NCBI RefSeq assembly: GCF_001677475.2
Contig: NZ_CP015229.1
Strand: one strand, 5' to 3'
DNA: 64,000 bases
Source of the DNA: Escherichia coli
GTDB lineage: Bacteria > Pseudomonadota > Gammaproteobacteria > Enterobacterales > Enterobacteriaceae
Under the pieces are notes generated by a model. The model was not told where the DNA came from. It saw nothing but the letters and a program-made list of their open reading frames with translations, and did no database searches. Positions 18,504 through 46,488 of the stretch are shown in pieces (within the stretch, counting starts at the first letter, position 1; every line of letters begins with the position of its first letter). Made by a program: the position numbers and the translations under genes.

Positions 18504-21500
18504 TTGAGCCAGGAATACACTGAAGACAAAGAAGTCACATTGACAAAGTTAAGTAGCGGCCGCCGCCTTCTGGAGGCGTTGCTGATCCTTATTGTCCTGT
18601 TTGCCGTCTGGTTGATGGCTGCCTTACTAAGCTTTAACCCTTCGGACCCCAGCTGGTCGCAAACGGCCTGGCATGAACCTATCCATAATTTAGGTGGGAT
18701 GCCCGGTGCGTGGTTGGCAGATACGCTGTTCTTTATTTTTGGCGTGATGGCTTACACCATTCCCGTCATTATTGTCGGCGGTTGTTGGTTTGCCTGGCGT
18801 CATCAGTCCAGCGACGAATACATTGATTATTTTGCCGTTTCGCTACGCATCATTGGCGTTTTGGCGCTCATCCTTACCTCCTGTGGTCTGGCGGCAATCA
18901 ACGCTGATGATATCTGGTATTTTGCCTCCGGTGGCGTCATTGGCAGCTTACTAAGTACTACGCTACAACCACTGCTACACAGTAGCGGGGGAACTATTGC
19001 GCTGCTCTGCGTTTGGGCTGCGGGCCTGACGCTGTTCACCGGTTGGTCATGGGTGACCATTGCTGAAAAACTCGGCGGCTGGATTTTAAACATTCTCACC
19101 TTCGCCAGTAATCGTACCCGTCGCGATGATACCTGGGTCGATGAAGATGAATATGAAGATGACGAAGAGTATGAAGATGAAAACCACGGCAAACAGCATG
19201 AAACACGCCGTGCCCGTATTCTTCGCGGCGCGCTAGCGCGTCGTAAACGGTTGGCGGAAAAATTCATTAATCCGATGGGGCGGCAAACAGACGCTGCGTT
19301 GTTCTCCGGTAAGCGGATGGATGATGAAGAAGAGATTACCTACACTGCACGCGGTGTGGCTGCCGACCCGGACGACGTCCTATTTTCGGGCAATCGTGCA
19401 ACGCAGCCAGAATATGACGAATACGATCCATTATTAAACGGTGCGCCAATTACCGAACCTGTCGCTGTAGCAGCTGCTGCTACCACGGCGACACAAAGCT
19501 GGGCTGCGCCGGTTGAACCTGTGACTCAGACGCCGCCTGTTGCCTCTGTTGATGTTCCACCTTCGCAACCTACAGTAGCCTGGCAGCCTGTACCGGGTCC
19601 ACAAACGGGAGAGCCGGTTATTGCTCCTGCACCGGAAGGTTACCCACAGCAGTCACAATATGCGCAGCCTGCAGTGCAATATAATGAGCCGCTGCAACAA
19701 CCAGTACAGCCGCAGCAGCCGTATTATGCACCTGCAGCTGAACAACCTGCGCAACAGCCGTATTATGCCCCTGCGCCAGAACAACCGGTGGCAGGTAACG
19801 CCTGGCAAGCCGAAGAGCAGCAATCCACTTTTGCTCCACAGTCTACATACCAGACTGAGCAAACTTATCAGCAGCCAGCCGCTCAGGAGCCGTTGTACCA
19901 ACAGCAGCAACCCGTTGAACAGCACTCTGTTGTGGAGCCTGAGCCCGTTGTAGAAGAGACAAAACCCGCGCGTCCGCCGCTTTACTATTTTGAAGAAGTG
20001 GAAGAGAAGCGTGCCCGTGAACGTGAACAACTTGCGGCCTGGTATCAACCGATTCCTGAACCGGTTAAAGAACCAGAACCGATCAAATCTTCGCTGAAAG
20101 CACCTTCTGTTGAAGCAGTATCTCCAGTGGAAGCCGCTGCCGCTGTTTCCCCTTTGGCATCTGGCGTGAAAAAAGCGACACTGGCGACGGGGGCTGCTGC
20201 AACCGTTGCCGCGCCAGTCTTCAGTCTGGCAAATAGCGCTGGACCGCGTCCGCAGGTCAAAGAGGGGATTGGCCCGCAGTTGCCACGACCGAAACGTATC
20301 CGCGTGCCAACTCGTCGTGAATTGGCGTCTTACGGTATTAAGCTGCCCTCACAGCGTGCGGCGGAAGAAAAAGCCCGTGAAGCCCAGCGCAATCAGTATG
20401 ATTCTGGCGATCAGTATAACGATGATGAAATCGATGCGATGCAGCAGGATGAACTGGCACGTCAGTTCGCCCAGACACAGCAGCAACGCTATGGCGAACA
20501 GTATCAACATGATGTGCCCGTAAACGCAGAAGATGCAGATGCTGCGGCAGAGGCTGAACTGGCTCGTCAGTTTGCGCAAACTCAACAACAACGTTATTCC
20601 GGCGAACAACCGGCTGGGGCGAATCCGTTCTCGCTGGATGATTTTGAATTTTCGCCAATGAAAGCGTTGTTGGATGATGGTCCACACGAACCGCTGTTTA
20701 CGCCAATTGTTGAACCTGTACAGCAGCCGCAACAACCGGTAGCGCCACAGCCGCAGTATCAGCAGCCACAACAGCCAGTTGCGCCACAGCCGCAGGATAC
20801 CCTGCTTCATCCGCTGTTGATGCGTAATGGCGACAGCCGTCCGTTGCATAAACCGACGACGCCGCTGCCTTCTCTGGATTTGCTGACACCGCCGCCGAGC
20901 GAAGTGGAGCCGGTAGATACCTTTGCGCTTGAACAAATGGCGCGCCTGGTGGAAGCGCGTCTGGCTGATTTCCGTATTAAAGCCGATGTCGTCAATTACT
21001 CTCCGGGGCCGGTTATCACTCGCTTTGAATTGAACCTGGCACCGGGCGTAAAAGCGGCGCGCATTTCTAATTTGTCACGGGACCTGGCCCGTTCACTTTC
21101 TACGGTGGCGGTGCGTGTCGTTGAAGTTATTCCTGGCAAACCCTATGTAGGTCTGGAGTTACCGAATAAAAAACGACAAACCGTTTATCTGCGCGAAGTT
21201 TTGGATAACGCCAAATTCCGCGATAATCCGTCGCCATTAACCGTGGTGCTGGGTAAAGATATCGCCGGTGAGCCGGTGGTTGCCGATCTGGCGAAAATGC
21301 CGCACTTGTTGGTTGCGGGGACTACCGGTTCCGGTAAGTCTGTCGGTGTGAACGCGATGATCCTGAGCATGCTTTATAAAGCACAGCCAGAAGATGTGCG
21401 TTTCATCATGATCGACCCGAAAATGCTGGAGCTTTCGGTTTATGAAGGCATTCCGCACCTGTTAACGGAAGTCGTTACTGATATGAAAGATGCCGCCAAC

Positions 21501-22337
21501 GCGCTGCGCTGGTGTGTTAACGAGATGGAACGTCGGTATAAACTGATGTCTGCGCTGGGTGTGCGTAATCTGGCGGGTTATAACGAAAAAATTGCTGAAG
21601 CCGATCGCATGATGCGTCCGATTCCAGACCCGTACTGGAAGCCGGGTGACAGTATGGATGCCCAGCATCCGGTGCTGAAAAAGGAACCGTACATTGTGGT
21701 GTTGGTGGACGAATTTGCCGACCTGATGATGACGGTAGGTAAAAAAGTGGAAGAGCTGATAGCACGTCTGGCACAAAAAGCCCGTGCCGCGGGTATCCAT
21801 CTCGTACTGGCAACTCAGCGTCCATCGGTTGATGTTATTACTGGTCTGATTAAAGCGAATATTCCGACCCGTATCGCCTTTACCGTATCCAGTAAGATTG
21901 ACTCACGTACCATTCTTGATCAGGCTGGCGCGGAATCACTGCTGGGTATGGGGGATATGCTTTACTCTGGGCCGAACTCCACGTTGCCGGTACGTGTTCA
22001 TGGTGCTTTTGTTCGCGATCAGGAAGTTCATGCCGTGGTGCAGGACTGGAAAGCGCGTGGTCGCCCACAGTATGTTGATGGCATCACCTCCGACACTGAA
22101 AGCGAAGGTGGCGCGGGCGGTTTCGATGGTGCTGAAGAACTGGATCCGTTGTTCGATCAGGCGGTGCAGTTTGTTACTGAAAAACGCAAAGCGTCAATTT
22201 CTGGCGTACAGCGTCAGTTCCGCATTGGTTATAACCGTGCAGCGCGTATTATCGAACAGATGGAAGCGCAGGGGATTGTCAGCGAACAGGGGCACAACGG
22301 TAATCGTGAAGTGCTGGCCCCACCGCCGTTTGACTAA
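18504..22337 (+). CDS. ftsK: DNA translocase FtsK, 1277 aa as encoded here
   Basis: TTG start with ggag 9 bp upstream. N-terminal membrane domain, long Pro/Gln-rich linker, C-terminal motor (Walker A GTTGSGKS) and gamma winged-helix domain. See finding on linker length. Confidence 0.95.
19712..19792 (+). repeat. Imperfect tandem coding repeat in the ftsK linker (QQPYYAPA-type units)
   Basis: Two adjacent near-identical units cagccgtattatgcNcctgc...gaacaacc, encoding ...[27 protein letters not shown].... Confidence 0.6.
20728..20796 (+). repeat. Imperfect tandem coding repeat in the ftsK linker (QQPVAPQPQ-type units)
   Basis: Units caacaaccggtagcgccacagccgcag and caacagccagttgcgccacagccgcag, encoding [25 protein letters not shown]. 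Confidence 0.6.
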
Positions 22338-22346
22338 TTAATGCAT

Positions 22347-22378
22347 TGCCGGATAAGGCGGTAGCGTCGCATCCGGCA
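22347..22378. repeat. REP (repetitive extragenic palindrome) element downstream of ftsK
   Basis: tgccggataaggcg...cgcatccggca palindrome, typical of enterobacterial REP units, in the ftsK-lolA intergenic region. Confidence 0.6.
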
Positions 22379-22489
22379 CTCTATCAACTGAAAATTCAGT
22401 ATTTTCTTCTTTCCTCAAGCTGATTATTAGCCTGGAATAGAGAGTAGAGGGAACTCCCGATCGGGAGTGACGTAATTTGAGGAATAATG

Positions 22490-23101
22490 ATGAAAAAAAT
22501 TGCCATCACCTGTGCATTACTCTCAAGCTTAGTAGCAAGCAGCGTATGGGCTGATGCCGCAAGCGATCTGAAAAGCCGCCTGGATAAAGTCAGCAGCTTC
22601 CACGCCAGCTTCACACAAAAAGTGACTGACGGTAGCGGCGCGGCGGTGCAGGAAGGTCAGGGCGATCTGTGGGTGAAACGTCCAAACTTATTCAACTGGC
22701 ATATGACTCAACCTGATGAAAGCATTCTGGTTTCTGACGGTAAAACACTGTGGTTCTATAACCCGTTCGTTGAGCAAGCTACGGCAACCAGGCTGAAAGA
22801 TGCCACCGGTAATACGCCGTTTATGCTGATTGCCCGCAACCAGTCCAGCGACTGGCAGCAGTACAATATCAAACAGAATGGCGATGACTTTGTCCTGACG
22901 CCGAAAGCCAGCAATGGCAATCTGAAGCAGTTCACCATTAACGTGGGACGTGATGGCACAATCCATCAGTTTAGCGCGGTGGAGCAGGATGATCAGCGCA
23001 GCAGTTATCAGCTGAAATCCCAGCAAAATGGGGCTGTGGATGCAGCGAAATTTACCTTCACCCCGCCGCAAGGCGTCACGGTAGATGATCAACGTAAGTA
23101 G
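22490..23101 (+). CDS. lolA: Periplasmic lipoprotein carrier LolA
   Basis: ORF 22487..23101 (MMKKIA...). Signal peptide [21 protein letters not shown] followed by the mature chaperone; 203 aa from the second Met. Confidence 0.9.
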
Positions 23102-23111
23102 AGGCACCTGA

Positions 23112-24455
23112 GTGAGCAATCTGTCGCTCGATTTTTCGGATAATACTTTTCAACCTCTGGCCGCGCGTATGCGGCCAGAAAATTTAGCACAGTATATCGG
23201 CCAGCAACATTTGTTGGCTGCGGGGAAGCCGTTGCCGCGCGCTATCGAAGCCGGGCATCTGCATTCTATGATCCTCTGGGGGCCGCCGGGTACTGGCAAG
23301 ACAACCCTCGCTGAAGTGATTGCCCGCTATGCGAACGCTGATGTGGAACGTATTTCTGCCGTCACCTCTGGCGTGAAAGAGATTCGCGAGGCGATCGAGC
23401 GCGCTCGGCAAAACCGCAATGCAGGTCGCCGCACTATTCTTTTTGTTGACGAAGTTCACCGTTTCAACAAAAGCCAGCAGGATGCATTCCTGCCACATAT
23501 TGAAGACGGCACCATTACTTTTATTGGCGCAACCACTGAAAACCCGTCGTTTGAGCTTAATTCGGCACTGCTTTCCCGTGCCCGTGTCTATCTGTTGAAA
23601 TCCCTGACTACCGAGGATATTGAGCAAGTACTAACTCAGGCGATGGAAGACAAGACCCGTGGTTATGGTGGTCAGGATATTGTTCTGCCAGATGAAACAC
23701 GACGCGCCATTGCTGAACTGGTGAATGGCGACGCGCGCCGGGCGTTAAATACGCTGGAAATGATGGCGGATATGGCCGAAGTCGAAGATAGCGGTAAGCG
23801 GGTCCTGAAGCCTGAATTACTGACCGAAATCGCAGGTGAACGTAGCGCCCGCTTTGATAATAAAGGTGATCGCTTTTACGATCTGATTTCCGCACTGCAT
23901 AAGTCGGTACGTGGTAGCGCACCCGATGCGGCGCTCTACTGGTATGCGCGAATAATTACCGCCGGTGGCGATCCGTTATATGTCGCGCGTCGTTGCCTGG
24001 CAATTGCTTCCGAAGATGTCGGCAATGCCGACCCACGGGCGATGCAGGTGGCAATTGCGGCCTGGGATTGCTTTACTCGCGTTGGCCCGGCGGAAGGTGA
24101 ACGCGCCATTGCTCAGGCGATTGTTTACCTGGCCTGCGCGCCAAAAAGTAACGCTGTCTACACTGCGTTTAAAGCCGCGCTGGCCGATGCTCGCGAACGT
24201 CCAGATTATGACGTGCCGGTTCATTTGCGTAATGCGCCGACAAAATTAATGAAGGAAATGGGCTACGGGCAGGAATATCGTTACGCTCATGATGAGGCAA
24301 ACGCTTATGCTGCCGGTGAGGTTTACTTCCCGCCGGAAATAGCACAAACACGCTATTATTTCCCGACAAACAGGGGCCTTGAAGGCAAGATTGGCGAAAA
24401 GCTCGCCTGGCTGGCTGAACAGGATCAAAATAGCCCCATAAAACGCTACCGTTAA
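23112..24455 (+). CDS. rarA: Replication-associated recombination protein A (AAA+ ATPase RarA/MgsA)
   Basis: 447-aa ORF with GTG start. Walker [10 protein letters not shown], Walker [11 protein letters not shown]. Confidence 0.92.
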
Positions 24456-24524
24456 TGTTATCGTTGCGGTAATGTTGTTACTGTATCCCTGTGGTCGCAG
24501 GCTGTGGCCACATCTCCCATTTAA

Positions 24525-25838
<1,314 letters not shown>

Positions 25839-25863
25839 TACCCAATTTTTCTGAATCTAAAAA

Positions 25864-25885
25864 GCGCCTGCGGGCGCTTTTTTTG
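25864..25885 (+). terminator. Intrinsic terminator downstream of serS
   Basis: gcgcc-tgcg-ggcgc hairpin immediately followed by ttttttt. Confidence 0.75.
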
Positions 25886-26076
25886 TCTCCCTTTGATACC
25901 GAACAATAATTACTCCTCACTTACACGTAATACTACTTTCGAGTGAAAATCTACCTATCTCTTTGATTTTCAAATTATTCGATGTATACAAACCTATATA
26001 GCGAGCTGCTATAGAAATAATTACACAATACGGTTTGTTACTGGAATCAATCGTGAGCAAGCTTGAGTGAGCCATT

Positions 26077-28520
26077 ATGAAAACGAAAATCCCTGATGCG
26101 GTATTGGCTGCTGAGGTGAGTCGCCGTGGTTTGGTAAAAACGACAGCGATCGGCGGCCTGGCAATGGCCAGCAGCGCATTAACATTACCTTTTAGTCGGA
26201 TTGCGCACGCTGTCGATAGCGCCATTCCAACAAAATCAGACGAAAAGGTTATCTGGAGCGCCTGTACAGTTAACTGTGGTAGTCGCTGCCCGCTACGTAT
26301 GCACGTCGTGGACGGTGAAATCAAATATGTCGAAACGGACAATACCGGCGATGACAATTACGACGGCCTGCACCAGGTTCGCGCCTGTCTGCGTGGGCGT
26401 TCCATGCGTCGCCGTGTCTACAATCCGGACCGGCTGAAATATCCGATGAAACGAGTCGGGGCGCGCGGTGAAGGCAAATTCGAGCGCATTAGCTGGGAAG
26501 AAGCCTACGACATCATCGCGACCAATATGCAGCGCCTGATCAAAGAGTACGGCAACGAGTCTATCTATCTGAACTATGGCACCGGTACGCTGGGCGGCAC
26601 CATGACCCGCTCCTGGCCGCCGGGAAATACCCTGGTCGCGCGCCTGATGAACTGCTGCGGCGGCTATCTGAACCATTACGGCGACTACTCCTCCGCGCAA
26701 ATTGCGGAAGGTCTGAACTATACCTACGGCGGCTGGGCAGATGGTAACAGCCCGTCGGATATCGAAAACAGTAAGCTGGTAGTGCTGTTTGGTAATAACC
26801 CAGGCGAAACGCGAATGAGTGGCGGCGGGGTGACTTATTACCTTGAACAGGCTCGCCAGAAATCTAATGCTCGCATGATCATCATCGATCCGCGCTATAC
26901 CGACACCGGTGCCGGGCGCGAAGATGAGTGGATCCCTATTCGTCCGGGAACAGATGCCGCACTGGTTAACGGTCTGGCGTACGTCATGATCACCGAAAAC
27001 CTGGTGGATCAGGCATTCCTCGATAAATATTGCGTTGGCTACGACGAGAAAACACTGCCAGCCAGTGCGCCGAAAAATGGTCACTATAAAGCTTATATTC
27101 TGGGTGAAGGGCCAGATGGCGTAGCTAAAACGCCGGAATGGGCCTCGCAAATCACCGGTGTTCCGGCAGACAAAATCATCAAACTGGCTCGTGAAATCGG
27201 CAGTACCAAACCGGCGTTTATCAGCCAGGGATGGGGCCCGCAGCGTCACGCTAACGGTGAAATCGCAACCCGTGCTATCTCGATGCTGGCGATTCTGACC
27301 GGTAACGTTGGTATTAATGGAGGGAACAGCGGCGCGCGTGAAGGTTCATACAGCTTACCGTTTGTCCGTATGCCGACCCTCGAAAACCCGATCCAGACCA
27401 GCATTTCTATGTTTATGTGGACCGATGCCATTGAACGTGGCCCGGAAATGACGGCGCTGCGTGATGGTGTGCGCGGGAAAGATAAGCTGGATGTGCCGAT
27501 CAAAATGATCTGGAACTATGCCGGTAACTGCCTGATTAACCAGCATTCTGAAATCAACCGTACCCATGAAATCCTTCAGGATGATAAGAAGTGCGAGCTG
27601 ATTGTGGTTATCGACTGCCACATGACCTCATCGGCGAAATATGCTGACATCCTGCTGCCTGACTGCACCGCTTCCGAACAGATGGACTTTGCACTGGATG
27701 CATCCTGCGGGAATATGTCTTACGTGATTTTCAACGATCAGGTGATTAAACCGCGCTTTGAATGTAAGACCATCTATGAAATGACCAGCGAACTGGCAAA
27801 ACGTCTTGGCGTTGAGCAACAGTTTACTGAAGGCCGTACACAGGAAGAGTGGATGCGGCATCTGTATGCCCAGTCGCGGGAAGCGATTCCTGAACTGCCA
27901 ACGTTTGAAGAGTTCCGCAAGCAGGGGATCTTTAAAAAGCGCGCCCACAAGGGCATCACGTTGCTTATAAAGCCTTCCGTGAAGATCCGCAGGCAAATCC
28001 ACTGACCACGCCATCGGGTAAAATTGAGATTTATTCGCAGGCGCTGGCTGACATTGCCGCTACCTGGGAATTGCCAGAAGGCGACGTGATCGATCCACTG
28101 CCGATCTACACGCCGGGCTTTGAAAGTTATCAGGATCCGCTGAACAAACAGTATCCGCTGCAGCTTACGGGTTTCCACTATAAATCTCGCGTTCACTCAA
28201 CTTACGGCAACGTTGATGTGCTGAAAGCGGCTTGCCGTCAGGAGATGTGGATCAACCCGCTTGATGCGCAAAAACGCGGTATCAACAACGGCGATAAAGT
28301 CAGGATCTTTAACGATCGTGGTGAGGTTCATATTGAGGCGAAAGTGACGCCACGAATGATGCCGGGCGTGGTCGCACTGGGTGAAGGTGCCTGGTATGAC
28401 CCAGATGCAAAACGTGTCGATAAGGGCGGTTGTATCAACGTACTGACCACTCAACGTCCGTCTCCTCTCGCTAAGGGGAATCCGTCACATACAAACCTTG
28501 TTCAGGTTGAAAAGGTGTAA
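26077..28520 (+). pseudogene. dmsA: dmsA, anaerobic DMSO reductase catalytic subunit, with an interrupted reading frame (true pseudogene or sequencing indel)
   Basis: ORF 26077..28005 (642 aa) has the Tat signal (SRRGLVKTTAIGG) and the molybdopterin-oxidoreductase N-terminus, then ends ...FKKRAHKGITLLIKPSVKIRRQIH*. The +1 frame is open from about 27936 to 28520 and encodes the expected C-terminal part (...PQGHHVAYKAFREDPQANPLTTPSGKIEIYSQ...NLVQVEKV), ending 10 bp before dmsB. This implies a 1-nt indel near 27940..27950. Confidence 0.6.
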
Positions 28521-28530
28521 GGAGTAACCG

Positions 28531-29148
28531 ATGACAACCCAGTATGGATTTTTTATTGATTCCAGCCGTTGCACCGGTTGCAAAACCTGCGAGCTGGCTT
28601 GTAAAGACTACAAAGATTTGACGCCAGAAGTCAGTTTCCGCCGCATTTATGAATATGCTGGCGGCGACTGGCAGGAAGATAACGGTGTCTGGCACCAGAA
28701 CGTGTTTGCCTACTATCTGTCGATTTCATGTAACCACTGCGAAGATCCGGCTTGTACTAAAGTCTGCCCGAGCGGTGCGATGCATAAACGTGAAGATGGT
28801 TTTGTTGTGGTCGATGAAGATGTGTGCATTGGCTGCCGTTACTGCCATATGGCTTGCCCGTACGGCGCACCGCAATATAACGAAACGAAAGGCCATATGA
28901 CCAAATGCGATGGTTGTTATGACCGTGTTGCGGAGGGGAAAAAACCGATCTGCGTAGAATCCTGCCCGCTGCGGGCGCTGGATTTCGGCCCTATCGACGA
29001 GCTGCGTAAAAAACATGGCGATTTGGCGGCTGTTGCGCCGTTGCCGCGAGCTCACTTTACCAAACCGAATATTGTGATCAAACCCAATGCCAACAGCCGC
29101 CCGACCGGGGATACCACTGGCTACCTGGCAAACCCGAAGGAGGTGTGA
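28531..29148 (+). CDS. dmsB: DMSO reductase iron-sulfur subunit DmsB
   Basis: 205-aa ORF with four Cys clusters of 4Fe-4S ferredoxin type (CTGCKTCELAC, CNHCEDPACTKVC, CIGCRYCHMAC, CDGC...C). Confidence 0.95.
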   Translation: MTTQYGFFIDSSRCTGCKTCELACKDYKDLTPEVSFRRIYEYAGGDWQEDNGVWHQNVFAYYLSISCNHCEDPACTKVCPSGAMHKREDGFVVVDEDVCIGCRYCHMACPYGAPQYNETKGHMTKCDGCYDRVAEGKKPICVESCPLRALDFGPIDELRKKHGDLAAVAPLPRAHFTKPNIVIKPNANSRPTGDTTGYLANPKEV

Positions 29149-29149
29149 G

Positions 29150-30013
29150 ATGGGAAGTGGATGGCATGAATGGCCGCTGATGATCTTCACGGTCTTCGGG
29201 CAATGTGTAGCGGGTGGTTTTATCGTTCTGGCTTTGGCGCTGCTCAAAGGCGACCTGCGAGCAGAAGCCCAGCAGCGTGTTATTGCCTGCATGTTTGGTT
29301 TATGGGTGCTGATGGGCATTGGCTTTATCGCCTCTATGCTCCATCTTGGTTCACCGATGCGCGCCTTTAACTCGCTCAACCGGGTAGGGGCTTCAGCACT
29401 CAGTAACGAAATCGCCAGCGGTTCGATCTTTTTTGCTGTTGGTGGCATCGGCTGGTTGCTGGCAATGCTGAAAAAGCTGTCACCGGCATTGCGTACGCTG
29501 TGGCTGGTGGTGACGATGGTTCTTGGCGTCGTCTTTGTCTGGATGATGGTGCGTGTCTATAACAGCATCGATACCGTACCCACCTGGTACAGCATCTGGA
29601 CACCGATGGGCTTCTTCCTGACGATGTTCATGGGCGGCCCGTTACTGGGTTACCTGTTGCTGAGTCTGGCTGGCGTCGATGGCTGGGCGATGCGTCTGCT
29701 GCCAGCCATTTCTGTACTGGCACTGTTAGTGAGTGGCGTGATGTCAGTGATGCAGGGCGCAGAGCTGGCGACTATTCATAGTTCTGTGCAGCAGGCCGCA
29801 GCGCTGGTGCCGGACTATGGTGCGCTGATGTCCTGGCGGATCGTGCTTTTGGCTGTTGCCCTGTGTTTGTGGATTGCACCACAGCTAAAAGGTTATCAGC
29901 CTGCGGTTCCGCTACTATCCGTCTCATTCATTCTGCTTCTGGCAGGAGAATTAATCGGTCGCGGCGTATTCTATGGTTTGCATATGACCGTGGGGATGGC
30001 CGTCGCAAGCTAA
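29150..30013 (+). CDS. dmsC: DMSO reductase membrane anchor subunit DmsC
   Basis: ORF 29087..30013. Start taken at MGSGWHEWPLMIFTVFGQ (287 aa), 1 bp after the dmsB stop, with SD aaggagg upstream. Polytopic membrane protein. Confidence 0.9.
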   Translation: MGSGWHEWPLMIFTVFGQCVAGGFIVLALALLKGDLRAEAQQRVIACMFGLWVLMGIGFIASMLHLGSPMRAFNSLNRVGASALSNEIASGSIFFAVGGIGWLLAMLKKLSPALRTLWLVVTMVLGVVFVWMMVRVYNSIDTVPTWYSIWTPMGFFLTMFMGGPLLGYLLLSLAGVDGWAMRLLPAISVLALLVSGVMSVMQGAELATIHSSVQQAAALVPDYGALMSWRIVLLAVALCLWIAPQLKGYQPAVPLLSVSFILLLAGELIGRGVFYGLHMTVGMAVAS

Positions 30014-30021
30014 TCAGTAAC

Positions 30022-30043
30022 AACCGGGGTTTCGACCCCGGTT
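30022..30043. terminator. Bidirectional hairpin between dmsC (+) and ycaC (-)
   Basis: aaccgggg-tttcga-ccccggtt inverted repeat between convergent genes. Confidence 0.5.
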
Positions 30044-30048
30044 CTCTA

Positions 30049-30675
30049 TTATTTCTGCTTCGTTAATGTGTCATAACTGGTCATCAAATTACGATAATCA
30101 GGAATGTGGTTAGAGAACAACGTCGCCAGTCCTTCAATATCATTACGCCAGTCACGGTGCAGCTCGCAAGCCACGCCGAACCATGTCATCAATTGCGCAC
30201 CAGCTTGCGACATGCGATCCCACGCCGAATGCCGGGTAATTTCATTAAAGGTCCCTGATGCATCAGTCACGACAAATACATCAAACCCCTCTTCAATGGC
30301 TGAAAGCGCCGGGAATGCCACGCAAACTTCGGTTACCACACCGGCAATAATTAACTGTTTTTTACCTGTCGCTTTGACAGCTTTTACAAAATCTTCGTTA
30401 TCCCAGGCGTTAATATTTCCCGGGCGAGCAATGTAAGGTGCATCGGGAAACTGTGCTTTCAGTTCTGGAACTAATGGGCCGTTAGGACCGGTTTCAAAAC
30501 TGGTGGTAAGAATAGTAGGTAAGTTGAAATACTTAGCCAGGTCGCCCAGCGCCAGCACGTTATTTTTAAACTTATCGGGTTCGATATCCCGTACAAGGGA
30601 AAGTAAACCAGCCTGGTGATCAACAAGCAAAACGGCAGCATCATTTTTATCAAGACGAACATACGGTTTGGTCAT
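30049..30675 (-). CDS. ycaC: Isochorismatase-family hydrolase YcaC
   Basis: 208-aa ORF MTKPYVRLDKNDAAVLLVDHQAGL...; cysteine hydrolase fold signature (VAGVVTEVCV). Confidence 0.9.
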   Translation of the reverse strand: MTKPYVRLDKNDAAVLLVDHQAGLLSLVRDIEPDKFKNNVLALGDLAKYFNLPTILTTSFETGPNGPLVPELKAQFPDAPYIARPGNINAWDNEDFVKAVKATGKKQLIIAGVVTEVCVAFPALSAIEEGFDVFVVTDASGTFNEITRHSAWDRMSQAGAQLMTWFGVACELHRDWRNDIEGLATLFSNHIPDYRNLMTSYDTLTKQK

Positions 30676-30989
30676 CCTCTTCTCCTTTCGAGAGTCAGTG
30701 GTACGTCTGAAATCGGTCAGACGCGATGCATTGCTCTGAAAGCATAGACGGGAAATATGAGTTTGCTTTGACCATGAAATTTTTCGACTGAACGAAGCGT
30801 ATGAAATTTGTGTTAGATCAATAAAAACAACCAGATGAGATTAATCGTCTCTCCAGCATTAGCGTTATGAATGAGTAATATAAATCGATAATACCTCCGC
30901 TGCGATATGCGCGTATTTTCACCCATTGACAATGTTTTTGGCGGTGGCATGATGCGCATGAAATTTGAACTTCCTCACGGTTTTAATTC

Positions 30990-32138
30990 ATGTCCACGTA
31001 TACCCGGCCTGTCATGCTTTTGCTGTCTGGCCTGCTTTTGTTGACTCTGGCGATCGCAGTGTTAAATACACTCGTGCCGCTTTGGCTCGCCCAGGAACAC
31101 ATGTCCACATGGCAGGTAGGCGTTGTCAGCTCATCCTATTTTACCGGCAACCTGGTCGGTACATTGCTGACAGGGTATGTCATTAAGCGCATTGGCTTTA
31201 ACCGCAGCTATTATCTGGCCTCCTTCATTTTTGCCGCTGGCTGTGCCGGCCTTGGCCTGATGATTGGATTCTGGAGCTGGTTGGCTTGGCGTTTTGTCGC
31301 CGGCGTCGGCTGTGCCATGATTTGGGTGGTTGTTGAGAGCGCGCTGATGTGCAGTGGGACGTCACGTAACCGTGGGCGTTTGCTTGCTGCGTATATGATG
31401 GTTTATTACGTGGGAACGTTTTTAGGCCAGTTACTGGTCAGCAAAGTTTCAACCGAGCTGATGTCCGTATTGCCGTGGGTTACAGGTTTGACGTTGGCAG
31501 GGATCTTACCGCTGTTGTTTACGCGTGTGCTGAATCAGCAGGCTGAAAACCATGATTCGACGTCAATTACGTCAATGCTAAAACTCCGTCAGGCGCGGCT
31601 TGGCGTGAATGGCTGCATTATCTCAGGAATCGTTCTGGGATCTCTATATGGCCTGATGCCGCTGTACCTCAATCACAAAGGGGTGAGCAATGCCAGCATT
31701 GGTTTCTGGATGGCGGTACTGGTCAGTGCGGGTATCCTTGGACAATGGCCGATTGGACGTCTGGCGGATAAGTTTGGTCGACTGCTGGTGTTGCGTGTTC
31801 AGGTCTTTGTCGTCATTCTCGGCAGTATCGCGATGCTTAGCCAGGCGGCGATGGCCCCAGCGTTATTCATCCTCGGTGCCGCTGGCTTTACGCTATATCC
31901 GGTGGCGATGGCATGGGCTTGCGAGAAAGTTGAACATCATCAACTGGTGGCGATGAACCAGGCCTTACTGTTGAGCTATACCGTGGGAAGTCTGCTTGGC
32001 CCGTCATTTACTGCCATGCTAATGCAGAATTTCTCCGATAATTTATTGTTTATCATGATCGCCAGCGTATCGTTTATCTATTTGCTGATGCTGCTTCGCA
32101 ACGCCGGTCATACGCCGAAACCCGTTGCTCACGTGTAA
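30990..32138 (+). CDS. ycaD: MFS transporter YcaD
   Basis: 382-aa ORF, 12-helix hydrophobic pattern; position and length match ycaD. Confidence 0.9.
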
Positions 32139-32347
32139 ATGAATTAACGCAGAGTGTGAACTTACTGTTTCACACTCTGCTTTTCTGTTTCTTCTCTCTG
32201 ACTTGCTTTTTTCAAAATTTTATTCGTTTCAAAATAAAATGTGCAGCAGGTTATAATTTTGCATTTCGCTATTTCCGCACTTCTTATTTGCCGCGCATAA
32301 TCCTTCGTTTTACAGATGCCCCTTTAATTTTGGCGAAGGATTTGTCT

Positions 32348-33778
32348 ATGGCTGGGAATGTTCAGGAAAAACAGCTGCGATGGTACAACATTGCGCTGAT
32401 GTCTTTTATCACTGTCTGGGGTTTTGGCAACGTTGTTAATAACTACGCCAACCAGGGGCTGGTGGTTGTTTTTTCATGGGTGTTTATCTTTGCGCTCTAT
32501 TTCACACCTTATGCGCTAATTGTTGGCCAGTTAGGCTCGACCTTCAAAGATGGGAAGGGCGGGGTCAGTACCTGGATTAAACACACGATGGGACCCGGAC
32601 TGGCTTACCTCGCCGCGTGGACCTACTGGGTAGTGCATATTCCCTATCTGGCACAAAAACCCCAGGCAATACTGATTGCGCTCGGTTGGGCGATGAAAGG
32701 CGACGGTTCGCTAATCAAAGAATATTCAGTCGTAGCGTTACAGGGGTTAACGCTGGTGCTGTTTATCTTCTTTATGTGGGTTGCTTCACGCGGTATGAAA
32801 TCGCTGAAAATCGTCGGTTCTGTGGCAGGGATTGCGATGTTTGTTATGTCGCTCCTGTATGTGGCGATGGCGGTAACCGCGCCTGCGATTACTGAAGTGC
32901 ATATTGCGACCACAAACATTACCTGGGAAACGTTCATTCCTCATATCGACTTTACCTACATTACCACTATTTCAATGCTGGTTTTCGCGGTTGGCGGAGC
33001 AGAGAAGATTTCTCCTTACGTTAATCAAACGCGCAACCCAGGAAAAGAATTTCCAAAAGGGATGTTATGCCTGGCGGTGATGGTTGCGGTTTGTGCCATT
33101 CTGGGCTCACTGGCGATGGGGATGATGTTTGACTCGCGTAATATCCCGGATGACTTAATGACTAACGGTCAGTATTACGCCTTTCAGAAGCTGGGCGAGT
33201 ATTACAACATGGGTAATACTTTAATGGTGATTTATGCCATTGCGAATACCCTGGGACAAGTAGCTGCGCTGGTATTCTCGATTGATGCACCGCTTAAAGT
33301 GTTATTAGGCGATGCCGACAGCAAATATATTCCAGCAAGTTTATGTCGTACCAACGCTTCTGGTACGCCCGTTAATGGCTATTTTCTGACCCTGGTGCTG
33401 GTGGCGATCCTGATAATGCTACCGACTCTCGGCATTGGTGATATGAACAATCTCTATAAATGGCTGTTGAATCTTAACTCGGTAGTGATGCCGCTGCGTT
33501 ATTTGTGGGTATTTGTTGCGTTTATTGCTGTCGTTCGCCTGGCGCAGAAATATAAACCAGAGTATGTCTTTATTCGTAATAAGCCGATGGCAATGACCGT
33601 CGGGATATGGTGTTTTGCCTTTACCGCTTTTGCATGCCTGACAGGAATTTTCCCTAAAATGGAAGCCTTCATTGCAGAGTGGACATTCCAATTGGCACTG
33701 AACATTACTACGCCATTTGTCCTCGTTGGACTGGGGCTGATATTCCCGCTGCTTGCACGTAAAACGAATACAAAATAG
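32348..33778 (+). CDS. ycaM: APC-family amino-acid/polyamine transporter YcaM
   Basis: ORF 32156..33778. Start taken at MAGNVQEKQLRWYNIALMSF (476 aa), preceded by aagga. Polytopic membrane protein. Confidence 0.88.
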   Translation: MAGNVQEKQLRWYNIALMSFITVWGFGNVVNNYANQGLVVVFSWVFIFALYFTPYALIVGQLGSTFKDGKGGVSTWIKHTMGPGLAYLAAWTYWVVHIPYLAQKPQAILIALGWAMKGDGSLIKEYSVVALQGLTLVLFIFFMWVASRGMKSLKIVGSVAGIAMFVMSLLYVAMAVTAPAITEVHIATTNITWETFIPHIDFTYITTISMLVFAVGGAEKISPYVNQTRNPGKEFPKGMLCLAVMVAVCAILGSLAMGMMFDSRNIPDDLMTNGQYYAFQKLGEYYNMGNTLMVIYAIANTLGQVAALVFSIDAPLKVLLGDADSKYIPASLCRTNASGTPVNGYFLTLVLVAILIMLPTLGIGDMNNLYKWLLNLNSVVMPLRYLWVFVAFIAVVRLAQKYKPEYVFIRNKPMAMTVGIWCFAFTAFACLTGIFPKMEAFIAEWTFQLALNITTPFVLVGLGLIFPLLARKTNTK

Positions 33779-33785
33779 TCATCAT

Positions 33786-33803
33786 GCCCCGGTTCGCCGG
33801 GGC
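33786..33803 (+). terminator. Hairpin just downstream of ycaM (weak terminator candidate)
   Basis: gccccgg-ttcg-ccggggc perfect inverted repeat 8 bp after the ycaM stop; no clear U-tract. Confidence 0.35.
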
Positions 33804-34875
33804 TGTGATATCAAATAGACTAAAATTAGATCAGGCCTGATAAGGCAAAAGTTAAGTTTTTCTTAAGAGATGAAAGAAAATCAACGCTACCGTGATAATA
33901 CGAATTTTAGTTATCGGAGACCATTATTTTTAGATATGGTGATAGTTTTAATTATTGGTTATTTTGCAAGTTATTATTTTGGGCTCTGGAGTAAACTCTT
34001 GCGCATAGTAATAACATGATTTTTACGGCTAAATTTTCAACAAAGATTGGTAATGTAAACTCGTATTTTTTGATTTGCATCAATGAATTCGCACGTTGCT
34101 AATTATGGTTAAATTTGCTGAGAATGATTGCGGTTATTGTTTGGATATGCAGATGGTATATTGATTCACTGGCGTAATATTCTGTAAAAATTATATTTTA
34201 TAGTGTTTTAATCTGGCAAAAATCATCTCCCGACAGAATCTTCTCATGCCTGGTGTAGTTCACAGTCTTTTGTTTTAAAAATAAAATAGTGCTCTAATGT
34301 TGCATCTATTGTTTTATCGAGCGTGTGTTCCTGAAAATATTTATCTGTTAGGTTGATGGACAAATTACAGCCTGGGCAGTGAAATTTTCACGATCACTTT
34401 CTGACTAAATCTTACTTTAAGGTTACTGATTAATATATTTGGGCTAAGAGAGTCGTATTACACATGTCTCAAAAAAGATAAATAAACAGAAAGGATTACT
34501 CACAATAGATACTAATAACACTTTTGGATAGTTATAGAGTAGAAGCCACGACTCAGCAGGATGTAGTAGCTGTGTTGTTATAAGTTAATTTTTTCATGGC
34601 TAAATTATTTCGTTGAAAAATTAACGAAAGGCGGTAGCGTGGGTGAAAGATACAAAATGAGTGTTACATATAACAATATTACCTTGGTTAAAATAGAATG
34701 AATGATAATCACCTGTGGAAATTAAGAAAAAAGTAATCTTCTCATCATGATATATTTTTTATATGGAATAGTGAAATTAATAAAATCATAAAGAGGAGAG
34801 CAACATCGTCTAATATACAGAACGTTATACGATATGATATGAAGCTATTAATAACATTTTAGTCAGAATACCAGT

Positions 34876-37224
34876 ATGTATAGCATTACCGAAAAATTAA
34901 ACTCAAGATTTAACACTGCGGTTATATTAGCTGTTACTGTCTATATTGTCTTGTCATTTATTACCGCAATTGATTTCCATAAAAAAATAGCAGAAAACTC
35001 TGCACAGATTAACCTTATACTCATCAATAACAATTTGAATAATTTTTTTTCTAAAGTTGAAAAAGAGGCTGATGCATTAAAAGATGCAATCTATCTGTTA
35101 CATGATGAAGATGAAATAAAGCGAGCAGTCCTTCATCGCATGAAAAAAATAGACGCGGTTAATTTAGTAGGGATAATGCTCAATAATGGAAAATATCTTA
35201 GCTTTATTCGAACTGAGAATGGGGAGGTAAAATTTCTGGGGCAATCAGAACCCGGTAAACCTTTTATTGGTGACGATGGTGATATCAGCGATAACTACTT
35301 TAATCCGGAATCACGCCCATGGAATAAATTACCGAGGGGGACTTATTCAAAATGGTCACCATGGTATAATTGTTATGGTATTGCCGGAAAAAAATGTTTT
35401 TCGTTTTCACTACGACCATCCGAAGAAGAAAAAAATTCATTTGCTTTGAAGTTAATACATCTGGATGTTGATGAAAAATATTTCAGTAATTTTTTAAATA
35501 AACTGGGTGGTGATTCTGATATTTTATTCATGGAACAAAACAAAAGGATTATGGTGGGTAATGAAAAATCAATGTTACATCTTATTGTCCGTGATTTATC
35601 GGGAAGTTATAACATAAGCAATAATAGTGGCAACTATACAGACAATGTTATCTCACTCCCCTGGCTTCCTGATGTCAGATTCCATTATTTCCACTATCAA
35701 AAATCAGAAGATACAAACATCAATAAATATTTTACACTGATGTTTTTATGTGGCTTGGTTTGTTTCTGTTTATTATGGTATATCGTTGAAAAAATAACAA
35801 GAAAAATCAAAGGTGAATCCAGCAAACTGATAGAACATCTGAAAAAATTAGCTAATTCAGTATATCGCAACGACACAATTGATATTGTGCAAAATGACAG
35901 TGGTGAGATTGTTGAACTCAAAAAGATCATTAATAATATCAGCGATAAATACAAGGAGCGTATGGACCGATTACTTAATCTTGTGTCCTATGAACAAGGA
36001 AGTTGCTTTTATATTAATAAGGCTATTATTGAAACTAATAATAAAACCTATTTGGCAATTGGTATGCTTTGCATCTATGGATTAGAGTTTGTTGAAGCGG
36101 TATATGGAAATCAGAAATTTCATGAGATTTTTAATGATATAAAATCTAAGATATCACAAAAATATTCAAAATATTGTGATATCGTAAAAATCTCAACTGA
36201 AACATACTTGTTGCTATGTCACACTGATTGCGAAGAGTTCATCGAAAAATTATCGGTTTTAAACTTTCCTGAACATATATTTTGCATAAGAAATATATAT
36301 ATCCACAAGATTGCCATTTGCGAAAATTTTTCAGGGGAAAATGTATCGATTTATGAAAGGAAACTGAAACTGGCATTAACAGCTATGCGGGAAAATAAAG
36401 AATCTGAATTTATTTTTTATGATGACATCAAAGTCCATGAACTTGATCAAAAGGTCTGGGTGGCAGGAAATATAAAAAAAGCGATTGCGAGTAATGAGCT
36501 TTATTTAGTATATCAACCGATTGTTGATATGGATAATAATAGGGTTGTAGGCGCAGAGGCGTTATGTCGCTGGTTGTCCTGCGAAAATGGGGTAATACCG
36601 CCATCAATTTTTGTACCTGTTGCTGAAGAAATAGGATTAATTAAAGAACTGGGTGATTTTGTTCTCGAAACAGCTATTAGCGAATTTGGGGTGTTTAGTT
36701 GTGAATATGAGGTTGCTAACGATTTTCTCCTGCATATCAATGTTTCTCCCTGGCAATTAAATGAATTTGACTTCCACACTCGTGTTCTTACTTTAATTAA
36801 TGCATTTGGTGTAAATGTTGAACAAATCTGCCTGGAGATCACCGAATCAGCAGTAAAAGATATAAATGATAGCTTTTACAATAATATAAATATTTTAAAA
36901 GAAAATGGTATCAAGATTTCCCTTGATGATTTCGGAAGTGGATTAGCTGACCTGAAAAAACTTTATAAAGTAAGACCTGATAGCATTAAAATTGATTCAG
37001 AGTTTACCTCTGGTATTTTCGATGAAACTAACAAGGTTGTATATTTTATATCCAATCTTGCTCGTGAAGAAAATATGCCGGTAATAGCTGAAGGTGTTGA
37101 AACTGAAAGTCAGGCTAGAGAGTTGCAAAAATTAGGATTTTCTCATGTTCAGGGATACTTATACCAGAAACCGTTACCGTTTTCAGAATGGCATATAGAC
37201 AACAAACCGAAAAAAAGAAAATAA
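34876..37224 (+). CDS. Membrane-bound c-di-GMP phosphodiesterase: TM, periplasmic sensor domain, TM, cytoplasmic linker region, EAL domain
   Basis: 782 aa. Hydrophobic helices near residues 15-35 and ~285-305. EAL-domain motifs all present: QPIVD, EALCRW, NVSP, LEITES, DDFGSG, KIDSEF, AEGVETE, QGYLY. No GG(D/E)EF signature upstream of the EAL domain. Confidence 0.85.
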   Translation: MYSITEKLNSRFNTAVILAVTVYIVLSFITAIDFHKKIAENSAQINLILINNNLNNFFSKVEKEADALKDAIYLLHDEDEIKRAVLHRMKKIDAVNLVGIMLNNGKYLSFIRTENGEVKFLGQSEPGKPFIGDDGDISDNYFNPESRPWNKLPRGTYSKWSPWYNCYGIAGKKCFSFSLRPSEEEKNSFALKLIHLDVDEKYFSNFLNKLGGDSDILFMEQNKRIMVGNEKSMLHLIVRDLSGSYNISNNSGNYTDNVISLPWLPDVRFHYFHYQKSEDTNINKYFTLMFLCGLVCFCLLWYIVEKITRKIKGESSKLIEHLKKLANSVYRNDTIDIVQNDSGEIVELKKIINNISDKYKERMDRLLNLVSYEQGSCFYINKAIIETNNKTYLAIGMLCIYGLEFVEAVYGNQKFHEIFNDIKSKISQKYSKYCDIVKISTETYLLLCHTDCEEFIEKLSVLNFPEHIFCIRNIYIHKIAICENFSGENVSIYERKLKLALTAMRENKESEFIFYDDIKVHELDQKVWVAGNIKKAIASNELYLVYQPIVDMDNNRVVGAEALCRWLSCENGVIPPSIFVPVAEEIGLIKELGDFVLETAISEFGVFSCEYEVANDFLLHINVSPWQLNEFDFHTRVLTLINAFGVNVEQICLEITESAVKDINDSFYNNINILKENGIKISLDDFGSGLADLKKLYKVRPDSIKIDSEFTSGIFDETNKVVYFISNLAREENMPVIAEGVETESQARELQKLGFSHVQGYLYQKPLPFSEWHIDNKPKKRK

Positions 37225-37228
37225 AGCA

Positions 37229-38569
37229 ATGTTCAAATATAAAAAAAAGGCGGCAGTGATCTGTTTTTTGTATTTTTTGTGCGTCGCTGTAGTAACTTGT
37301 TATTTGTACACCATTCATGTTAAAGGCCGTATAAATTCGGTGAAGGTATCTATTGTAGATAGTGGGCTTGCAATAGCTAATGTTTCTGAGTATCGCCGCT
37401 CAGTATCTAATAATATATTTTATGAACTTGAGGTTTCGCCAGAAGAGTTGTTAAAAAAAATACGCAATAGCTTTGCTGGCTATGAAAACCCTGGATATTT
37501 GTATGATCTCGGTCCTTATATGATTAGCGATGGTAAATGTATCAAAGTCACAACGAAAGGAGATAATTTTTGTGACGACATAGTTTCCTCTATTAGGGTA
37601 ATTAATGAATTTGAAAGAGGCATTATTAGCTTAAAAAATAAGTGCTATGTTTATTATGCTCATCCCATTGCAAAACGTACAAGTTTGATATCAGTGGTAG
37701 ATCCTGAACGTTATTTATCTTTGATAAGAAATCAATCAGGGGAACGAGAAGATATCTATGTATCATTTTATGATATTAATGATAATGAAAAGAAAATCGC
37801 AGGTGATGATTTTTTGATAAATGATGCAGTATTTGAGATGTCAGCTATCACTCTGTCGTATTCTTATCTTCCAGAAATGATGTTTATTGTTGCCTATAAA
37901 AAAAGTAAATATCTATATATATGTGCGTTTTTCGTTTTTGCATCGGCAATATCTGCAGTCATAATGTATGTTTATTATGTTAAATTATTGCGTGATATTA
38001 TAAATAAGGGTAGATTGGAAAAAGAATCTATATTGTCGAATCATCAATATGATTTACGTGGAGAAAATCTATTCTTTAATACGGAAGAGATTAATGCAAT
38101 TCGAGAGATATATGACTTTGGCACTTGTGATGCATTAACCAGGGCTTCTGGTCGCCGGAGTTTTGATAAAGAAATCAAGATACTGAGAAAAAATTTTGGC
38201 TACCTGTGTCTATTTGATGTGGATAAATTTAAAACCATTAATGATAAGTTTGGTCATTTATTTGGTGATGAAGTACTCATCAAACTTGTTAATATCATTA
38301 AAGAAGAGTTACCCCGTCGTGAAGGGGAAATATACCGGTTTGGCGGTGATGAGTTTGCTATTATTTATTATGAGAAAGATAAAAATAAGCTATCAAGAAT
38401 TTTGCACAGAGTTGTTCATTTCGCCATTGGTGGGTTAAATTGTAGTTGCAGTATAGGTGTTGCCAGCACAGATGAGTGCATGAATAACATTGAACGGTTG
38501 AAATTGCTGGCAGATGAACGGTTATATAAAAGTAAGCAAAATGGCCGAGCACAGATAACGTGGTGTTGA
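37229..38569 (+). CDS. Membrane-bound diguanylate cyclase: TM, periplasmic sensor domain, TM, GGDEF domain
   Basis: 446 aa, starting 5 bp after the upstream stop. Two hydrophobic helices flank a ~200-aa periplasmic segment. GGDEF-domain motifs: DALT..RR, LFDVDKFKTINDKFGH, GDEVL, RFGGDEFAIIY, ADERLYKSKQNGR. No RxxD inhibitory site immediately upstream of GGDEF. Confidence 0.85.
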   Translation: MFKYKKKAAVICFLYFLCVAVVTCYLYTIHVKGRINSVKVSIVDSGLAIANVSEYRRSVSNNIFYELEVSPEELLKKIRNSFAGYENPGYLYDLGPYMISDGKCIKVTTKGDNFCDDIVSSIRVINEFERGIISLKNKCYVYYAHPIAKRTSLISVVDPERYLSLIRNQSGEREDIYVSFYDINDNEKKIAGDDFLINDAVFEMSAITLSYSYLPEMMFIVAYKKSKYLYICAFFVFASAISAVIMYVYYVKLLRDIINKGRLEKESILSNHQYDLRGENLFFNTEEINAIREIYDFGTCDALTRASGRRSFDKEIKILRKNFGYLCLFDVDKFKTINDKFGHLFGDEVLIKLVNIIKEELPRREGEIYRFGGDEFAIIYYEKDKNKLSRILHRVVHFAIGGLNCSCSIGVASTDECMNNIERLKLLADERLYKSKQNGRAQITWC

Positions 38570-38653
38570 TATTTTAATTTGCATGGCATTGGTCATCGAT
38601 GTTTACAAAAATCACACAGTTCAAGTTATATTATTAATGAATCGTTAAGTGCA

Positions 38654-40768: not shown

Positions 40769-40833
40769 TTCTAATTTCTGACTGCTAATTAAATATATTG
40801 TTTGTGTTTATTATGGTTGTTGAATTTTTTAAA

Positions 40834-43134: not shown

Positions 43135-43246
43135 TTCATCATCATTTCTATTTTGCGGCTCCATTCTGTCCTGACTTTATACAGGCAGGGAGCTGCGCCC
43201 GTTCTGTTTTTAATAAAAAGTGAGTTAACACCTGATTGAGGCAGGC

Positions 43247-46200: not shown

Positions 46201-46354
46201 GTCCAACTGGTTTGTCGGCACGGCGATTGATATCCAGCAGGCGAAAGATTATGCGCCAAGCCATTTCCTGCTCTACGTGCGGTATTCCGCCGCCGGATGG
46301 CAGGGCGACATGGATTTACCGCCGCAGCCGCTGATACCTTACGCCGACTGGTAA
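43247..46354 (+). CDS. BcsC-like outer-membrane export component (signal peptide, TPR repeats, C-terminal beta-barrel)
   Basis: 1035 aa. Signal peptide MYKFTLNLLTISLGLAVMSMAKA; SD gaggcagg upstream. Many TPR-like repeats (e.g. GALGQAYSQNGDRANAVANLEKALALDP); C-terminal Gly/aromatic-rich region ending in W (...LIPYADW). GC content rises sharply after the first ~0.6 kb. Confidence 0.85.
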   Translation: MYKFTLNLLTISLGLAVMSMAKATPTVHKLLMAQIRLGEDIHREDLVEQSLYRLELAEPDNPDVVAARFRYLLRKGDIEGAQKQLARLSLFAPDSKIYKASRTAMRLSSPEGRQALQMARLQAISGRHKEAIDSYDKLFNGAPPDIEMALEYWGAMTQISSRRNEAIRQLKILNIDNPDSGAIFGALGQAYSQNGDRANAVANLEKALALDPHSSNNDKWNSLLKVNRYWLAIQQGDAALKANNPDRAERLFQQARNVDNADSYAVLGLGDVAMARKDYPAAERYYQQTLRMDSGNTNAVRGLANLYRQQSPEKAEAFIASLSASQRRSVDDIERSLQNTRLSQQAEALENQGKWAQAAALQRQRLALDPGSVWITYRLSQDLWQAGQRSQADTLMRHLAQQKPNDPEQVYAYGLYLSGHDQDRAALAHINSLPRAQWNSNIQELVNRLQSDQVLETANRLRESGKEAEAEAMLRQQPPSTRIDLTLADWAQQRRDYTAARAAYQNVLMREPTNADAILGLTEVDIAAGDKAAARSQLAKLPATDNASLNTQRRVALAQAQLGDTAAAQQTFNKLIPQAKSQPPSMESAMVLRDGAKFEAQAGDPKQALETYKDAMVASGVTTTRPQDNDTFTRLTRNDEKDDWLKRGVRSDAADLYRQQDLNVTLEHDYWGSSGTGGYSDLKAHTTMLQVDAPYSDGRMFFRSDFVNMNVGSFSTNADGKWDDNWGTCTLQDCSGNRSQSDSGASVAVGWRNDVWSWDIGTTPMGFNVVDVVGGISYSDDIGPLGYTVNAHRRPISSSLLAFGGQKDSPGNTGKKWGGVRADGVGLSLSYDKGEANGVWASLSGDQLTGKNVEDNWRVRWMTGYYYKVINQNNRRVTIGLNNMIWHYDKDLSGYSLGQGGYYSPQEYLSFAIPVMWRERTENWSWELGASGSWSHSRTKTMPRYPLMNLIPTDWKEDAASQTNDGGSSQGFGYTARALLERRVTSNWFVGTAIDIQQAKDYAPSHFLLYVRYSAAGWQGDMDLPPQPLIPYADW

Positions 46355-46395
46355 TGAGGTAGAATCAGAAGGTTAAAACTCGGAAATTAAATCCA

Positions 46396-46438
46396 GTAAA
46401 TCAGCGTCGAGCATGTTCTTAACGCTGATTTACTTTTT
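46396..46438 (+). terminator. Intrinsic terminator after the BcsC-like gene (may also serve convergent pflA)
   Basis: gtaaatcagcgt...acgctgatttac inverted repeat followed by ttttt, 42 bp after the stop at 46354. Confidence 0.65.
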
Positions 46439-46488
46439 ACTACTAAAGGAAGGGGTGGCAGGTCGGAATTCAGCCTGCACATGATGTT

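Follow-up and report, generated by a model that had tools for sequence, protein, structure and literature searches.

The FtsK linker of Escherichia coli: a rare short form of a known in-frame minisatellite, probably produced by contraction

A repeat array in the ftsK gene has been a routine typing marker for Escherichia coli and Shigella since 2007-2008; its Salmonella orthologue is used too, and the biological weight of the locus is small. The marker CVN001 was first described in the generic E. coli MLVA of Lindstedt et al. 2007 (J Microbiol Methods 69:197), and ms06 and ms07 were first described in the Shigella/E. coli MLVA of Gorgé et al. 2008 (J Clin Microbiol 46:1026). The Lindstedt primers for CVN001 and the accompanying sizing formula, (product-250)/39, are found in PMC8143711; Table 1 of PMC4644529 has the Gorgé primers for ms06 and for ms07 (CVN001), each of which has a 39-bp unit, and a 2025 paper (PMC11773471) gives the primers ACAACCGGCTGGGGCGAATCC and GTCAGCAAATCCAGAGAAGGCA for the ftsK locus, written there as CNV001. 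Published CVN001 frequencies for Swedish ESBL isolates place alleles 5 and 6 at 40% each within a range of 4-8 (PMC5217547); in an excerpt of a European set the lowest value is 2, with one ST131 isolate on record as carrying it (PMC3407997).

Salmonella enterica, a different genus, carries an orthologous 39-bp ftsK array that is an MLVA locus under the names STTR7 and SENTR2. Its unit and its position, directly before a conserved 14-residue motif, match those of the E. coli array, and the reference strain S. Enteritidis NCTC 13349 has 9.3 copies (PMC2430564). The VNTRs of tolA (CVN004 in E. coli, SENTR1 in Salmonella) likewise show in-frame variation in a long flexible segment and serve as typing markers, but they belong to another gene and have units of 15 bp and 45 bp, so that they are a conceptual analogue only.

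The window analysed here, a stretch of 64,000 nucleotides of E. coli DNA, contains ftsK in the conserved gene context lrp-ftsK-lolA-rarA. The encoded protein, which is deposited at NCBI as ANO88089.1 and under other accessions, scores over the cut-off for all four Pfam families in the order of FtsK/SpoIIIE proteins (4TM, alpha, ATPase, gamma). Measured from the Pfam 4TM domain to the alpha domain, its linker is about 596 aa long and consists of 13% alanine, 13% proline and 12% glutamine; a literature search on proline and glutamine in the FtsK linker returned nothing. The gene, the domains of its product and the repeats within the linker are as follows.

18504..22337, plus strand: ftsK coding sequence with a TTG start, 1277 aa, taken from the ORF list and colinear with K-12 ftsK
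aa 20-191 of the window FtsK: FtsK_4TM (Pfam)
aa 788-888 of the window FtsK: FtsK_alpha (Pfam)
aa 896-1109 of the window FtsK: FtsK_SpoIIIE (Pfam)
aa 1212-1272 of the window FtsK: FtsK_gamma (Pfam)
19713..19790, plus strand: upstream in-frame 39-bp VNTR (ms06), two units QQPYYAPA[A/P]EQP[A/V], aa 404-429, from Tandem Repeats Finder and unit dissection
20451..20492, plus strand: first copy of a 14-aa ELARQ pair, aa 650-663, the same in six further E. coli alleles
20556..20597, plus strand: second copy of the ELARQ pair, aa 685-698, 105 nt from the first
20718..20795, plus strand: downstream in-frame 39-bp VNTR (CVN001 / ms07), two units, aa 739-764, from Tandem Repeats Finder and unit dissection

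Tandem Repeats Finder reported two arrays with a 39-bp period and 1.9 copies each, one at 19711..19786 (score 117) and the other at 20721..20795 (score 122). Between its two units the upstream array has 7 differences in 39 nt, and so does the downstream array, whose 39-bp unit encodes 13 aa of the form [V/Y], ten residues, [P/Q]Q. Between the downstream array and the FtsK alpha domain lie 23 aa, which places the array at the C-terminal end of the linker. Since 39 is divisible by three, gain or loss of whole units keeps the reading frame and alters only the length of a flexible tether. The ELARQ copies, with 105 nt between them and 8 differences in 42 nt, do not form a tandem repeat; the pair is also present in fragments of Salmonella and Citrobacter FtsK, and it is an old, fixed, dispersed duplication and not a VNTR.

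The downstream array is the known typing marker CVN001, identical with ms07, and the QQPYYAPA repeat is ms06, the second published ftsK VNTR marker; what differs in the window is only the allele. Primers, the 39-bp in-frame unit and strain-variable copy number are all shared between the published CVN001/ms07 and the window array. In silico PCR placed the primers and products at the following positions.

19603..19903, plus strand: ms06 amplicon with the Gorgé primers, 301 bp, equal to 2.00 copies
20461..20891, plus strand: ms07 (CVN001) amplicon with the Gorgé primers, 431 bp here and 587 bp in K-12
20606..20626, plus strand: CVN001 forward primer ECMLV4-F of PMC11773471, exact single match
20866..20887, minus strand: CVN001 reverse primer ECMLV4-R of PMC11773471, exact match

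The ECMLV4 product is 282 bp in the window and 438 bp in K-12, and the Lindstedt primer pair, which also matches the window exactly, yields 289 bp. The Gorgé primers for ms06 and ms07 are exact matches as well, and all these pairs flank their arrays. The resulting values are ms06 = 2.00, ms07 = 2.00 and CVN001 = 1.00 for the window, and ms06 = 2.00, ms07 = 6.00 and CVN001 = 5.00 for K-12, from which it follows that the CVN001 formula counts one unit below the real number. The window's CVN001 allele of 1 lies below the Swedish range and below the lowest value in the excerpt of the European data. At ms06, where the 39-bp unit lies between the Gorgé primers, the window has two copies as K-12 does, whereas other E. 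coli have 3 or 4. Polymorphism of ms06 as a second variable site had gone unrecognized when the DNA was read from its sequence only.

K-12 MG1655 ftsK (L001 2225..6214) also begins with TTG and encodes 1329 aa. Aligned end to end, the two FtsK proteins are separated by 12 substitutions and a single 52-aa gap, which is their only difference in length. This gap equals 4 x 13 aa and falls wholly within the downstream array, where the window has two units and K-12 has six (aa 739-816), while the upstream array and the ELARQ pair show no difference between the two strains. With the gap an exact multiple of the unit, and with whole-unit variation seen in thousands of genomes, the pattern is not due to chance. 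At the nucleotide level, unit 2 of the window differs by 1 nt from the terminal K-12 unit (unit 6). Unit 1 is nearest to K-12 unit 1, from which it differs by 5 nt; its 5' part is that of K-12 unit 1 (GTA CAG CAG CCG CAA CAA CCG GT...), and its 3' part is of the ...GCGCCACAGCCGCAG type found in internal or terminal units.

These data bear out much of an earlier, sequence-only reading of the window. The length of 1277 aa that it gave for FtsK agrees with the ORF at 18504..22337, and its statement that K-12 FtsK has 1329 aa and more repeat copies was right, at six units against two. Its proposal of a repeat-copy-number polymorphism accounts for the whole difference in length; the comparison that it suggested with K-12 returned different copy numbers, and the tandem-repeat finder that it suggested returned two 39-bp arrays of about 1.9 copies each. 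The downstream units, which it placed at 20728..20796, begin some 10 nt earlier, the array being 20718..20795, and are otherwise as described. As for the three tandem repeats that it listed, the duplicated QQPYYAPA and the downstream array are indeed VNTRs, but the 14-aa ELARQ pair is a fixed, non-tandem element.

For each genome, the length of the downstream array was taken as the span of a flanks-only query (597 nt, with the array removed) and calibrated on sequenced alleles; this query found a match in every one of 5,426 complete E. coli genomes except one. From the identity-ranked list of matches, 60 genomes were sampled in even steps. Arrays of six or seven units dominate this sample with 49 of the 60 genomes: 30 have seven units and 19 have six, four have eight, and nine, five and three units occur in one genome each, the rest being one partial match and three arrays that contain additional 5-aa YQQPQ subunits. 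After correction for the formula offset of one, the sample agrees with the published CVN001 frequencies. BLAST splits multi-copy arrays, which made full-gene megablast and a 241-bp query across the array unusable for allele counts. Two-unit and one-unit arrays were accordingly counted with E-value limits that only a single ungapped full-length match could pass. Exactly 10 of the 5,426 genomes (about 0.2%) have a two-unit array and 15 have a one-unit array, which gives 25 (about 0.5%) with two units or fewer. The window allele is therefore rare, yet it is neither unique nor the shortest. In 16 intact sequenced alleles ms06 varies from 2 to 4 units, ms07 from 1 to 9 units and FtsK from 1264 to 1382 aa; a seventeenth sequenced allele, that of CRE10, is frameshifted and was left out. 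The two ms06 units of the window represent the lowest copy number observed. The B2-type alleles examined carry 5-aa subunits too.

Short alleles occur on more than one ftsK background. In a neighbour-joining tree built on 3,632 non-repeat ftsK columns for the window and 14 other alleles, two-unit alleles occupy at least four separate branches, namely the window, O145:H28 RM12761, THO-008 together with GF60, and 873.10, and two-unit alleles in the tree neighbour relatives with one or seven units. The short state therefore recurs, and FtsK length, like a single VNTR, is homoplasic as a marker. Strain 298 combines ms06 = 2 with ms07 = 1 in an FtsK of 1264 aa, shorter than that of the window, while strain 2013C-4830 reaches the same 1277 aa as the window with a different structure (ms06 = 3, ms07 = 1). 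The ftsK gene of the window stands on a long branch of its own; compared with any of the 14 other alleles, it has no fewer than 51 differences among the 3,632 non-repeat sites.

Taken together, we consider the following account very probable: the two-unit array is an uncommon, short variant of an in-frame minisatellite already known from the disordered, Pro/Gln-rich FtsK linker, and it arose, as the likeliest route, by contraction. The allele and its units, its rarity, its recurrence on different backgrounds and its identity with the published markers are direct observations; contraction, its mechanism and near-neutrality are inferred. Internal units of a multi-copy ancestor would have been lost while both ends of the array were kept, through slippage during replication or unequal exchange between units on sister strands. 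A chimeric unit 1 followed by a unit 2 that is close to the terminal K-12 unit fits such an internal deletion. The FtsK of Citrobacter koseri has about five copies of the 39-bp unit at the same position, before the conserved 14-residue motif, and Salmonella FtsK has a multi-copy array of this unit there as well; the array thus predates the genus, and parsimony favours an ancestor with many copies. No multi-copy parent allele was found among the 5,426 complete E. coli genomes, in which identity to the window over ftsK never exceeds 99%. A protein-database search with the linker segment that bears the rare substitutions of this lineage (e.g. E537, S540, A579) returned mostly contig-end fragments and no parent, but it supplied the Salmonella and Citrobacter arrays for the outgroup comparison. 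Contraction as the likeliest direction of change is accordingly argued from parsimony and from the outgroups. For RecA-dependent exchange a unit of 39 bp is short, but in an array of 6 or 7 units the homology in shifted register amounts to 230-270 bp, and both slippage and exchange are possible. The sequence-only reading had named slipped-strand or recombinational contraction: the contraction is indeed the parsimonious choice, and the two routes look alike in sequence, which would fit either. With two units that have diverged at 7 of 39 nt, the window allele would be expected to mutate less readily than long arrays do.

The absence of a close multi-copy relative and the long branch of the window ftsK could also mean that two copies are the ancestral state of a divergent lineage, with the longer arrays elsewhere resulting from expansion and no contraction having occurred here. 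We regard this as quite unlikely, because multi-copy arrays are found in Citrobacter koseri and Salmonella and six or seven units in 49 of 60 E. coli genomes, because other two-copy alleles sit beside relatives with one or seven copies, and because unit 1 of the window looks chimeric, with the 5' part of a first unit and the 3' part of a later one. That the two-copy array is a longer tandem array collapsed by the assembler is hardly credible. Assemblies are known to go wrong at tandem repeats, and errors do occur at ftsK, as in the complete genome of CRE10, where the gene is annotated as frameshifted and its translation has 22 stops; but 11 contigs, each of a separate assembly, encode the identical 1277-aa protein, among them a 5.5-Mb contig and the Logan assembly of SRR3929499, so that the allele is reproducible. 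Moreover, an array of 78 bp whose units are distinguishable by 7 differences can be spanned by ordinary reads. Many 'partial' FtsK proteins in public databases have a terminus within the linker or close to it, suggesting that assemblers break at this gene and do not collapse it cleanly, and arrays of two copies and of one copy are present in other complete genomes (10 and 15, respectively).

Selection for a shorter tether next to the motor, acting for instance on motor reach or divisome contacts, would make the short array adaptive. Such a reading could draw on the reports that the linker is necessary for normal activity and contacts the divisome, on the position of the array, which abuts the alpha domain, and on the tight centring of copy number on six or seven, with two or fewer in 25 of 5,426 genomes, which could reflect stabilising selection. 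We give it very little credence: the short alleles turn up on unrelated backgrounds and in hosts whose ecology has nothing obvious in common, a linker indel in Salmonella was exchanged without a phenotype in the assay used, the linker is not needed for translocation in vitro, and the tight distribution can equally be explained by shared ancestry and low mutation rates. It is likewise very doubtful, and nothing in the present data points to it, that linker length next to the motor is held by stabilising selection, very short alleles measurably changing motor reach or divisome coupling in ways perhaps offset by ms06 or by other changes in the lineage; if this were true, such selection would explain both the dominance of six and seven units and the frequency of about 0.5% for two units or fewer.

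In the literature the FtsK linker (~650 aa) is described as unstructured and variable in length between species, as needed for normal FtsK activity and as contacting divisome proteins, although translocation in vitro does not require it. In Salmonella Enteritidis, swapping of a natural 28-aa linker repeat indel between strains produced no change in egg-white survival, the sole assay used (PMC6137255). The loss of 52 of about 600-650 disordered linker residues would slightly alter the reach of the tether that runs from the septal membrane anchor to the hexameric DNA pump. Natural variation in repeat number is plausibly near-neutral, and the effect of the window allele is presumably small; the earlier remark that the linker has only a weak influence on FtsK function goes too far if meant of the entire linker but is reasonable for this variation. 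The intact frame and the presence of the allele in 11 assemblies argue for an FtsK that would work in the cell with its shortened linker, in division as in dimer resolution.

The use of the locus as a strain marker, suggested from the sequence, is correct in principle, although the markers had already been published as CVN001/ms07 and ms06 and are homoplasic. The source strain would type unusually low, with CVN001 = 1 by the formula, ms07 = 2 and ms06 = 2. FtsK length alone is a poor marker, as two independent arrays add to it and short states recur. Differences in annotated FtsK length between strains should not be taken as truncations or errors.

FtsK alleles cannot be identified by protein length alone. 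The 1277-aa FtsK of E. coli 2013C-4830 has exactly the length of the protein encoded in the window despite a different allele structure, with three units of ms06 and one of ms07 (two published in-frame repeats of the ftsK linker with 39-bp, 13-aa units, each present in two units in the window). At 1264 aa, the FtsK of strain 298 is the shortest among the alleles seen. The ftsK genes of four comparison loci from other E. coli strains are arranged as follows.

826..4659 of L009: ftsK of E. coli 2013C-4830, ms06 three units, ms07 one unit, 1277 aa
865..4659 of L008: ftsK of strain 298, ms06 two units, ms07 one unit, 1264 aa
826..5075 of L010: ftsK of E. coli CRE10 (NZ_CP034404.1), annotated as a frameshifted pseudogene
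1045..4956 of L013: ftsK of E. coli JA0266, ms07 three units only, source label 'Spontaneous mutant'

Some ms07 arrays are irregular. In SF-173 (L011) and isolate 127 (L012), additional 5-aa YQQPQ subunits lie within the array, which measures 83 and 75 aa, respectively, neither length being divisible by 13; arrays bearing YQQPQ are accordingly expected to give non-integer calls in repeat-number typing (MLVA). JA0266 clusters with these two strains in the ftsK tree. The ms07 region of CRE10, 618 bp long, contains a non-whole number of units, and translation of its ftsK gives 22 stops. As ftsK is essential, the CRE10 frameshift probably reflects an error of sequencing or assembly within the repeat region.

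Among the matches to the FtsK linker segment of the window in the protein database search (P0002-P0121), 'partial' FtsK proteins are very numerous for Salmonella and E. coli; those of Salmonella among the matches listed are mostly ~725-790 aa long and retain the C-terminal gamma domain. The abundance of such 'partial' records suggests that the linker of ftsK is a frequent break point in short-read assemblies, perhaps because of its repeat arrays. In the E. coli genome collection, plasmid-labelled records contain 16 places that match the ftsK query and 8 that match the 597-nt query composed of the ms07 flanks without the array.

Judged from 18504..47000 of the window, the lineage from which it derives is scarcely sampled. 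Across 5,426 complete E. coli genomes, no ftsK has >99% identity to that of the window; 11 public contigs encode the exact FtsK protein. Of the matches to segment 22400-47000 that contain its core genes alone, the top ones reach ~98.0% identity. An island flanked by ycaM and pflA occupies 33779..46488; at least 80% of segment 22400-47000 is covered in only 9 of the 5,426 genomes, with a top identity of 96.5%. The island contains the following open reading frames.

34876..37224, plus strand, island ORF
37229..38569, plus strand, island ORF
38579..40768, plus strand, island ORF
40798..43134, plus strand, island ORF
43247..46354, plus strand, island ORF

By the gene names in the annotation of E. 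coli N3, the island carries bcsA-, bcsB- and bcsC-like genes alongside those for a GGDEF protein and a sensor c-di-GMP phosphodiesterase, and by this gene content it looks like a second cellulose-synthase-type cluster. The island appears to be a horizontally acquired mosaic, since its GC content climbs from 31-35% at 34-39 kb to 56-60% at 44-46 kb.
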